64,000 nt of DNA from a virus (lineage: Duplodnaviria > Caudoviricetes), in IMG/VR virus record IMGVR_UViG_3300031994_000004; one strand, written 5' to 3'. Numbering within the stretch: position 1 is the stretch's first letter; every line of letters starts with the position of its first letter. Shown piece after piece: positions 56,022 to 57,082 of the stretch. The position numbers were made by a program, and so were the translations under genes. Under the pieces are notes generated by a model. It was given only the letters and a program-made list of their open reading frames with translations, was not told where the DNA came from and ran no database searches.

Positions 56022-56975
56022 TAGAAATTACTCGCTCTGAATTTTTGTATATAGTTGTTTCCATATTTTGTTTTAACATAATTTAATTGTTCAGTACAGT
56101 CTGTAATAATTTTTACTTTATTTTCTTTTAAACACTGTGTCTTTTCAATCAAAAGTTTTTTAGTTTTTGGCTCTACTAAAATTCCATTTTCATTTATTAA
56201 ATGGTCTCCTTTTAGTTCAATATATTCTCCATTTATTTTAAAATCAGGAAAATAGTAATGAGTTTCTTCATCTATTTTATATTCTAATACTGAATTATGG
56301 TATTCAAATTTTACATTATTATCAGTTAGCCAAATATAATATGCTAATTCGTAACTGCTATCAAAATATGTTCCATTATAAAAGTATTTTCTTTTTGATT
56401 TGTCTTGTATTTCTTTACACTGCATAGGGTATTTAACACCATATCGTTTCAAACAAGTTTCAATACTTTTATTTGAAGCGTATTCACTACCTAAACTAAC
56501 ATTTGGTGTGCCATATCGTTCTGTATTAGTTTCAGCTATTTGTTCTAATACTTTGGGATTTAATAAAGGCCATTTATATCCTGTTCTTTCTAAATTAGTT
56601 TGTATTTTCTTTTGTTTAATTTCTTCAACTTGATTTACAGATTCTTTACCATATTTTTCTATACAAGTTTTCTTATATGATTCTTTATATGTTTTTGTTT
56701 GTCTATAATTATCACAGCCATATAATTTTTGGCAAGTCATAGAAGTTTTACATTTTCTACAGTATTTTCTATATGTAAATCGTAATCCACTTTTAGCTGA
56801 AAATCCAGTCGGTACACCGGCATTTTAAACATTTTCCATCATCAGGAGACTTACGCAAATATAAATCGTAAAATTCTTCTTTTGATAAATTTTTATTATG
56901 TTTGTTATTTAAATGGTTGAAAAAATAACCTGTATTAGATAATACAGCACCACAATCTTCACAAATATGTGTCAT
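56021..56975 (-). CDS. free-standing putative homing endonuclease, +1 recoding at CGGT 56819-56816, ~317 aa
   Basis: Joining 56793..56975 and 56021..56740 gives KCLKC-G-VPT, parallel to CPICGKPT of the 319-aa paralogue at 27093; FDSSYE...YFPDF...IELKG. Confidence 0.8.
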
Positions 56976-57079
56976 ATACAGCTCCTATTGTTATGGGTTA
57001 CAGCCCAATATATTTATAATAAGTTAGGCACAATGCTGTAACATTGTGCCAAATTGGTGAGCTGTTACCAATCTGTCCT
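56976..57079 (-). promoter_or_regulatory. structured endonuclease leader (second copy)
   Basis: Same layout as 26982-27092: loops TTACAG/CTGTAA complementary, loop ACAGCTC pairs with GAGCTGT in the RBS, TATAAATA at 57018-57011. Confidence 0.8.
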
Positions 57080-57082
57080 TAT

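Follow-up and report, generated by a model that had tools for sequence, protein, structure and literature searches.

A leader between uvsY and an endonuclease gene

We analyzed a 64,000-nucleotide (nt) stretch of viral DNA (Duplodnaviria; Caudoviricetes; IMG/VR virus record IMGVR_UViG_3300031994_000004), referred to here as the window, in which a structured leader lies between uvsY and a gene for a DUF7487 / PD-(D/E)XK-type endonuclease on the minus strand. The leader (copy 2) spans 56973–57082 (–), lies 3' of the uvsY stop codon TAA (57085–57083) and ends in the endonuclease start codon ATG (56975–56973); the endonuclease gene occupies 56021–56975 (–), and a single extra C, at a CGG near 56819, disrupts its reading frame. 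An original prediction, made from the sequence of the window, had described this leader as a set of hairpins with complementary loops and as the second copy of a leader found elsewhere in the window. We found that its reading of the minus strand holds, with minor omissions in the linkers (TAT before hairpin C and TAACAATA before GGAG), and that one architecture is indeed present in both copies, at 56973–57082 (–) and 26979–27095 (+), although the sequences of the stems and loops are hardly shared.

Read 5' to 3' on the minus strand, copy 2 opens with the 5' strand of a closing helix, P0 (ATAAG, 57078–57082), whose final three bases are the AAG of AAGGACAG. The motif AGGACAG (57079–57073), read from the sequence, overlaps this strand and contains the junction strand GACAG (57073–57077) that connects P0 to hairpin A. 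Hairpin A (57053–57072) has a 6-bp stem of ATTGGT and ACCAAT around the loop AACAGCTC and is separated by the junction strand UU (57051–57052) from hairpin B (57027–57050), in which GGCACAATG and CATTGTGCC form a 9-bp stem around the loop TTACAG. The junction strand UAA (57026–57024) and the 3' strand of P0 (CTTAT, 57023–57019) follow, placed by the sequence and by the covariation of P0 (together 57019–57026), and they are followed by TATAAATA (57018–57011), a T4-type late promoter motif. Further downstream are hairpin C (TGGG, loop CTGTAA, CCCA; 56994–57007) and the Shine-Dalgarno (SD) sequence GGAG (56985–56982), which overlaps GAGCTGT (56984–56978; together 56978–56985).

Two long-range pairings connect these parts. 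In loop A, the bases ACAGCTC (57065–57059) are the exact complement of GAGCTGT in the SD region (56984–56978), giving a duplex of 7 bp with an energy of –12.1 kcal/mol, and loop B (TTACAG) is the exact complement of loop C (CTGTAA). The late promoter motif lies between the junction domain, made up of P0 and hairpins A and B, and the two targets of that domain.

Copy 1 lies on the plus strand between nrdD and a paralogous endonuclease gene and follows the same plan with other stems and loops. It begins inside the nrdD stop codon (TAAAG) with P0 (TAAAG/CTTTA) and GACAG, continues through hairpin A (26989–27007), TT, hairpin B (27010–27033) and TTA to TATAAATA (27040–27047), and then through hairpin C (27052–27071) and the SD sequence GGAG (27082–27085) to the endonuclease ATG at 27093. 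The stop codon of the copy 1 nuclease (TAA, 28050–28052) is one base ahead of the ATG of nrdG. The open reading frame (ORF) of nrdG runs from 28033 to 28560 (+); translation probably begins with the ATG at 28054 (MKYGNIK), which is also the start in an empty-site allele (L309), and AGGAAA could be its SD sequence.

Covariation and junction structure across instances

We scanned IMG/VR, JGI/ENA metagenomes and GTDB genome contigs by pattern, applied a hairpin filter and dropped matches without the hairpins (about 17 of 48 in IMG/VR and most of those in metagenomes and genomes) as chance matches. The filter left 45 instances with 34 distinct loop combinations, and in all there are about 50 instances beyond the window. 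Rumen or gut material is the source of every one, and some lie on large phage contigs that had been binned into metagenome-assembled genomes (MAGs). A covariance model built on the plan of the leader (R1) and run on the fetched loci retrieved the pattern-found instances at 63–116 bits, together with variants that the patterns had missed. The two window copies, both in the seed, score 86.6 and 106.3 bits (E ~1e-13 and ~1e-17), and over the whole window the model gave no other real match; a weak echo of copy 1 on the reverse strand reached 27.5 bits. A megablast search of the uvsY-endonuclease locus against INPHARED phages gave no match. For the analysis of covariation, a MAFFT alignment (A1), which is not structure-aware, served as the seed only and was replaced by a 40-row covariance-model alignment (A5).

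Some leader-bearing contigs are filed in MAGs named Bacilli and Methanobrevibacter (L193/L223/L265, which are one 266-kb contig, and L220, 191 kb). These contigs are probably phage genomes binned with cellular genomes, so the MAG names are uninformative on the host.

In the 40-row alignment, 98.1% of the cells in the stems of hairpins A, B and C are paired, and 20 of 21 pairs have double-sided changes. For hairpin A, 98.9% are paired and all five of five pairs change on both sides; for hairpin B, 99.7% are paired and eight of nine pairs show double changes. Stem covariation is 0.946 as compared to 0.209 in shuffled alignments (0/500 as high), and it is at most 0.13 when the partners are slid against each other. 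The six pairs between loop B and loop C behave in the same way: 87.3% are paired, all six have double changes, and covariation is 0.45 as compared to 0.13 when shuffled (0/500 as high) and at most 0.09 when slid. About 20 different B/C loop sequences occur across the instances.

Because the register of the pairing between loop A and the SD region differs between rows of the alignment, fixed columns could not be used, and we instead compared the longest Watson-Crick run between cognate and non-cognate partners. Cognate runs average 7.0 nt, with 6–9 nt in 30 of 34 instances, as compared to 4.5 nt for non-cognate partners; the SD sequence is thus paired to the upstream leader. The same measure applied to loops B and C gave a mean of 6.6 nt for cognate and 3.8 nt for non-cognate partners. 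The B-loop:C-loop kiss spans 6–8 bp, loop A pairs with the SD sequence and spacer over 6–9 bp, and each loop duplex is worth about –10 kcal/mol. In most instances the A-loop:SD duplex ends 0–6 nt ahead of the ATG. Even in a pseudoknot-free fold, the unpaired probability of the SD segment falls from 0.52 in the late transcript to 0.21 in the full leader. In the stems, G-T outnumbers A-C both at internal positions (5 vs 1) and at loop-closing positions (30 vs 7), which fits an RNA of the sense strand. Taken together, these data extend the claim of a selected RNA structure far past the two copies on which it was made: the stems are nearly always paired and the loop pairings track their cognate partners.

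The original prediction had also proposed that AGGACAG may be a structural motif, and we found that it has a structural role in two parts. P0 forms between the AAG of AAGGACAG and the CUU of UAACUU and closes hairpins A and B as a three-way junction; because AAG pairs with CUU in this helix, GACAG, UU and UAA are the three junction strands. The fourth pair of P0 is kept in 36 of 39 instances (A-U in 26, U-A in 8, G-C in 1 and G-U in 1), with 0 of 1000 shuffles as high. The whole helix can also be exchanged with compensation, as seen in UUGCG/CGCAA (L306), AUGAG/CUCAU (L055:9798) and UGAAG/CUUCA (L028). The element is therefore a three-way junction with two long-range loop pairings and not a single local hairpin.

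Each conserved motif was checked by one search that omitted it. A pattern without AGGACAG returned 22 true matches, all 22 of which carry AAGGACAG and hence an invariant GACAG, and the UU strand reads TT in 45 of the 45 pattern-found instances. A pattern without TATAAATA returned 25 true matches, and in 22 of them TATAAATA is present 0–7 nt past ACTT, between the pairing partners. Among the remaining three, one has GATAAATA further on and two distinct sequences have neither. Two other roles considered for parts of the leader were rejected. AGGACAG is not a genome-wide motif (3 sites vs 3.8 expected), and on inspection AAGGA does not serve as the SD sequence of a small ORF, since an ATG follows in some copies only and the frame to the conserved TAA is not kept.

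Several variants rearrange or lose parts of this plan. In L055:9798, L329/L330, L331 and L335 the wiring is swapped: the partner of loop A is loop C, and that of loop B is the start codon AUG. In L304 the junction consensus is absent; however, a 9-bp A-loop:SD pairing, the B:C kiss and TATAAATA between them are all kept. L054 and L059 retain the junction domain and promoter and have lost the gene.

Cassette boundaries and nuclease genes

Comparison with endonuclease-free alleles of uvsY and of nrdD-nrdG, which the original prediction had put forward as a check, gave the boundaries of the element. In four IMG/VR relatives with an empty site (L292–L295), uvsY ends in ...SNF*, followed by a terminator and then by gene 46; the empty site of L294 reads aat|agt aat ttc taa tg. 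The uvsY gene of the window ends in ...MN*, and it is the endonuclease that ends in ...RA|SNF*, on the same agtaatttctaATG as the empty-site uvsY. The endonuclease ORF runs into the old AGT AAT TTC TAA, and TAATG overlaps the ATG of the next gene. From these ends the insertion is 57085–56033, which brought in a new stop codon and a P0 strand, so that the whole uvsY-site cassette (56033–57085, –) consists of a new uvsY stop codon, the leader and an endonuclease ORF without a stop of its own. In a rumen RNA run, a 9.9-kb contig of a relative skips the cassette, with 56032 joined to 57123. At the other site, a terminator takes the place of the cassette between nrdD and nrdG in the empty alleles (L309, L312 and L314). 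The suggestion that AGGACAG may also be an insertion-site motif agrees with these alleles, in which it marks the 5' edge of the inserted cassette.

Both endonucleases in the window match Pfam DUF7487 (PF24308), copy 2 with 69.7 bits and copy 1 with 33.1 bits, and both match PHROG "homing endonuclease" families; the consensus of the nuclease family carries PDF...EIKG, of the PD-(D/E)XK type. By these sequence matches, we assign the downstream genes in the window to DUF7487 / PD-(D/E)XK-type homing endonucleases. The two proteins are 32% identical. A PDB sequence search with the endonuclease found no relative, and tblastn returned only weak matches to Lak phages.

The leader had been described as travelling with this one endonuclease family. 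The association stands, with DUF7487 in 20 of 29 genes downstream of the leader; however, the description is too narrow, as the other genes encode GIY-YIG or HNH/NUMOD3 nucleases, so that at least three nuclease families are represented. The genes upstream of the leader include nrdD, dUTPase, thyA, uvsY and gp23.

Four leader-associated proteins (from set A3) match N6_N4_Mtase as well as DUF7487 and may be nuclease-methyltransferase fusions, for which ORFs of 520–595 aa in L016, L019, L026, L050 and L223 are the candidates. In L016 (10190–11008), the first cassette is followed by a duplicate of AAGGACAGAT and of the 3' end of the upstream gene, and then by a second endonuclease gene, encoding a zinc-finger protein, on the opposite strand; this arrangement suggests repeated invasion of one site.

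Around the uvsY site we made some further observations. On the minus strand, one extra C before GGA or GGT breaks both uvsY (near 57308, TAC C GGA) and the endonuclease (near 56819, TGC C GGT). These shifts may be sequencing errors; when CGGA is read as one glycine, a 136-aa UvsY results. The gap 5' of uvsY contains, on the other strand, a full-length match to Rfam cow-rumen-2 (RF02947; 57761–57867, +), scoring 87.2 bits where the gathering threshold is 66. This RNA is distinct from the leader, is the sole Rfam match nearby and points to rumen-type material as the source of the phage. A 161-aa ORF (55536–56022, –) between the cassette and gene 46 has no Pfam or PHROG family; it is absent from L292–L295 and present in the relative from RNA run X3.

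Proposed translational control and competing explanations

To interpret the leader, we considered where TATAAATA occurs in the window. There are 18 sites, 16 of them on the plus strand, and the great majority lie just 5' of an SD sequence and ATG. Because the motif is mostly on the late-gene strand and upstream of SD and ATG, we read it as the late promoter of this phage, and its use as a promoter is presumed from these positions. Its location between the pairing partners, which the original prediction did not stress, is the arrangement expected for late-promoter bypass and ties the element to that mechanism in T-even phages. The leader starts 0–10 nt past the upstream stop codon with no terminator between, and the timing of nrdD and uvsY is assumed from T4.

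We consider it probable, though well short of certain, that the stretch forms the 5' leader of a mobile cassette encoding a homing endonuclease, of a kind carried by T4-like rumen phages, and that this leader leaves read-through transcripts translationally locked and late transcripts free of the lock. As an RNA of the sense strand, the leader closes its three-way junction with P0 (NAAG/CUUN) right after the stop codon of the host gene (uvsY or nrdD), and arms A and B present variable address loops. Read-through transcripts from nrdD or uvsY would carry the junction domain, and the ribosome site of the endonuclease would be hidden. Transcripts begun a few bases after TATAAATA would not include P0 or hairpins A and B and should be translatable. 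The data establish the fold with all of its pairings, the place of the promoter motif, the association with endonuclease genes and the ends of the cassette; in this scheme we infer the translational block, the late firing of TATAAATA, the early or middle expression of nrdD and uvsY (as in T4) and the action in cis.

Several points weigh against this interpretation. Most instances came from patterns that contained AGGACAG, ACTT or TATAAATA, so the collection has a search bias. No contig from four rumen metatranscriptomes covers 56915–57116, the region that holds the leader. TATAAATA is missing from L329/L330 and L335, and in L331 there is just GATAAATA, located about 30 nt further downstream; not all instances can therefore be bypassed through this exact promoter. 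One of the upstream genes, gp23, is a late gene, and a lock at that position would act on late read-through as well. Finally, the structure is more complex than the model needs: a simple hairpin is enough in T4, and the invariant three-way junction is left unexplained.

The same pairings could also be used between molecules. The junction domain, as the 3' end of the upstream mRNA or as a processed piece of it, would then be a two-loop antisense RNA on late endonuclease transcripts, with the loop C kiss nucleating binding and loop A then covering the SD sequence. Fully complementary loops of 6–7 nt on stable stems, within a self-contained domain closed by P0, do resemble the kissing antisense RNAs CopA/CopT, RNAI/RNAII and OxyS-fhlA, which have two contact sites, one of them at the ribosome site; those RNAs act between molecules, whereas here both partners are on one read-through transcript. 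The solo leader L054 retains the junction domain with no gene to control, and cassettes of one contig always differ in their loops. However, such differences are expected by chance, as about 20 loop types exist, and they are uninformative on action in trans. Neither a promoter nor a clear terminator is found around the domain (the scan for terminators is silent on hairpin B), and the arrangement in cis is sufficient and is the documented one in T-even phages. We therefore regard action in trans as unlikely. Less likely still is that the invariant core of GACAG, UU and UAA binds a phage or host protein or a small molecule, which would set the angle between arms A and B and switch the lock. A three-way junction with a conserved core is typical of RNAs that bind ligands or proteins, and here the junction bases stay invariant while all stems and loops change and even when P0 is fully replaced. 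In contrast, Rfam models of riboswitches and ribozymes give no match at E up to 10, L304 achieves both pairings without this junction, and conservation of the junction can be purely architectural.

The hairpins might instead serve as insulation, replacing a lost terminator, ending or stabilising the upstream mRNA and protecting the 5' end of the late mRNA, with loop complementarity secondary. A plain terminator does occupy the position of the cassette in the empty sites of L309, L312, L314 and L294, several other late promoters of the window follow a terminator hairpin and T-run, and in L304 hairpin B runs straight into TTTTT. This explanation leaves two covarying long-range pairings aimed at the SD sequence or AUG unaccounted for; moreover, UAAC stands between hairpin B and the U-run, and hairpin B was rejected as a classical terminator because the terminator scan did not flag it. 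We judge it very improbable. An explanation at the level of DNA, with hairpins or cruciforms used for insertion or nuclease recognition, would suit the position of the element exactly at the 5' edge of the cassette, but we give it hardly any weight: three nuclease families with no relation to each other share this leader, the SD sequence or AUG of the sense mRNA takes part in one of the pairings, and the excess of G-T over A-C in the stems fits a sense-strand RNA.

A broader proposal is that the junction domain is a portable, programmable module with two addresses that also acts between molecules or under the control of a factor bound to the core. We hold this to be rather doubtful. If it were true, phages would carry a family of orthogonal antisense-like locks, one per selfish nuclease, with targets that can be rewired, either loop A to the SD sequence and loop B to loop C, or loop A to loop C and loop B to the AUG.

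The interpretation we favor, a leader that locks read-through transcripts and is bypassed by late ones, has close parallels in T-even phages. In I-TevI, I-TevII, I-TevIII, segB and mobE of the Aeromonas phage Aeh1, the RNA structure that sequesters the ribosome binding site forms solely when the transcript is an early or middle one, and it contains a late promoter (Edgell, Gibb and Belfort, 2010; PMC2988022). Our leader is like these in that the SD sequence is paired to upstream RNA limited to read-through transcripts, with a late promoter between the partners, and in that a homing endonuclease is set among genes for nucleotide metabolism or recombination; T4 mobC lies at the same nrdG/nrdD site. 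In contrast, the T-even leaders are single local hairpins specific to each gene, whereas our leader has a conserved three-way junction whose two loops each have a target of their own (a hairpin loop, and the SD sequence or AUG), the scaffold is common to about 50 cassettes of three nuclease families, and the wiring to the targets can swap. The T4 late genes soc, e, 39, 25 and 26 follow the same temporal logic, being masked from translation on the long transcripts of the early or middle period and free on late transcripts (cited in PMC2988022); they use simple hairpins and have no mobile or shared module. The PeSL promoter-terminator cassettes of T4-like phages (Arbiol et al., 2010, PMC2839356; Comeau et al., 2014, PMC4122927) resemble the leader in being short conserved regulatory modules of stem-loop and promoter that flank mobile genes and recur in T4-like genomes. 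They differ in having early promoters and a proposed role in recombination, and their titles and opening abstract lines give no hint of loop-to-SD pairing or a junction core.

That a late promoter can bypass a masked ribosome binding site is already known, which limits the surprise of our finding; the leader builds this scheme on a shared junction scaffold with two address loops. Gathering and E-value scans with Rfam 15 found no family matching either leader copy at E up to 10, and a full-text literature search returned the T-even reviews and the PeSL papers and nothing on a leader that combines a junction with kissing loops. The strong covariation together with the lack of an Rfam model marks an unrecorded RNA family. 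Homing endonucleases need to be quieted to be tolerated, and in T4 each gene has its own simple hairpin for this. In the present case, a single conserved scaffold of RNA with an invariant junction and freely evolving address loops serves at least three nuclease families at many genomic sites. It would amount to a modular "two-lock" translational control that moves with the cassette and supplies the stop codon for the interrupted gene. The leader also offers a compact test system for kissing loops combined with SD occlusion, for action in cis as compared to trans, and for the co-evolution of a regulatory RNA with mobile genes.

We made two minor observations on promoter-like sites. After hairpin C, about 9 of 30 scorable instances have a further promoter-like site, T(T/A)TAAATA with no more than one mismatch, as compared to 2.8% of background windows; an example in the window is at 27072–27079, and L220 has an exact TATAAATA there. 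This site may be a weak second late start or an AU-rich spacer only. Elsewhere in the window, the late promoters at 16744, 20076, 40556, 41182 and 61690 (+) lie directly after a GC-rich terminator hairpin and T-run, and these composite terminator-promoter units recall the PeSL cassettes.
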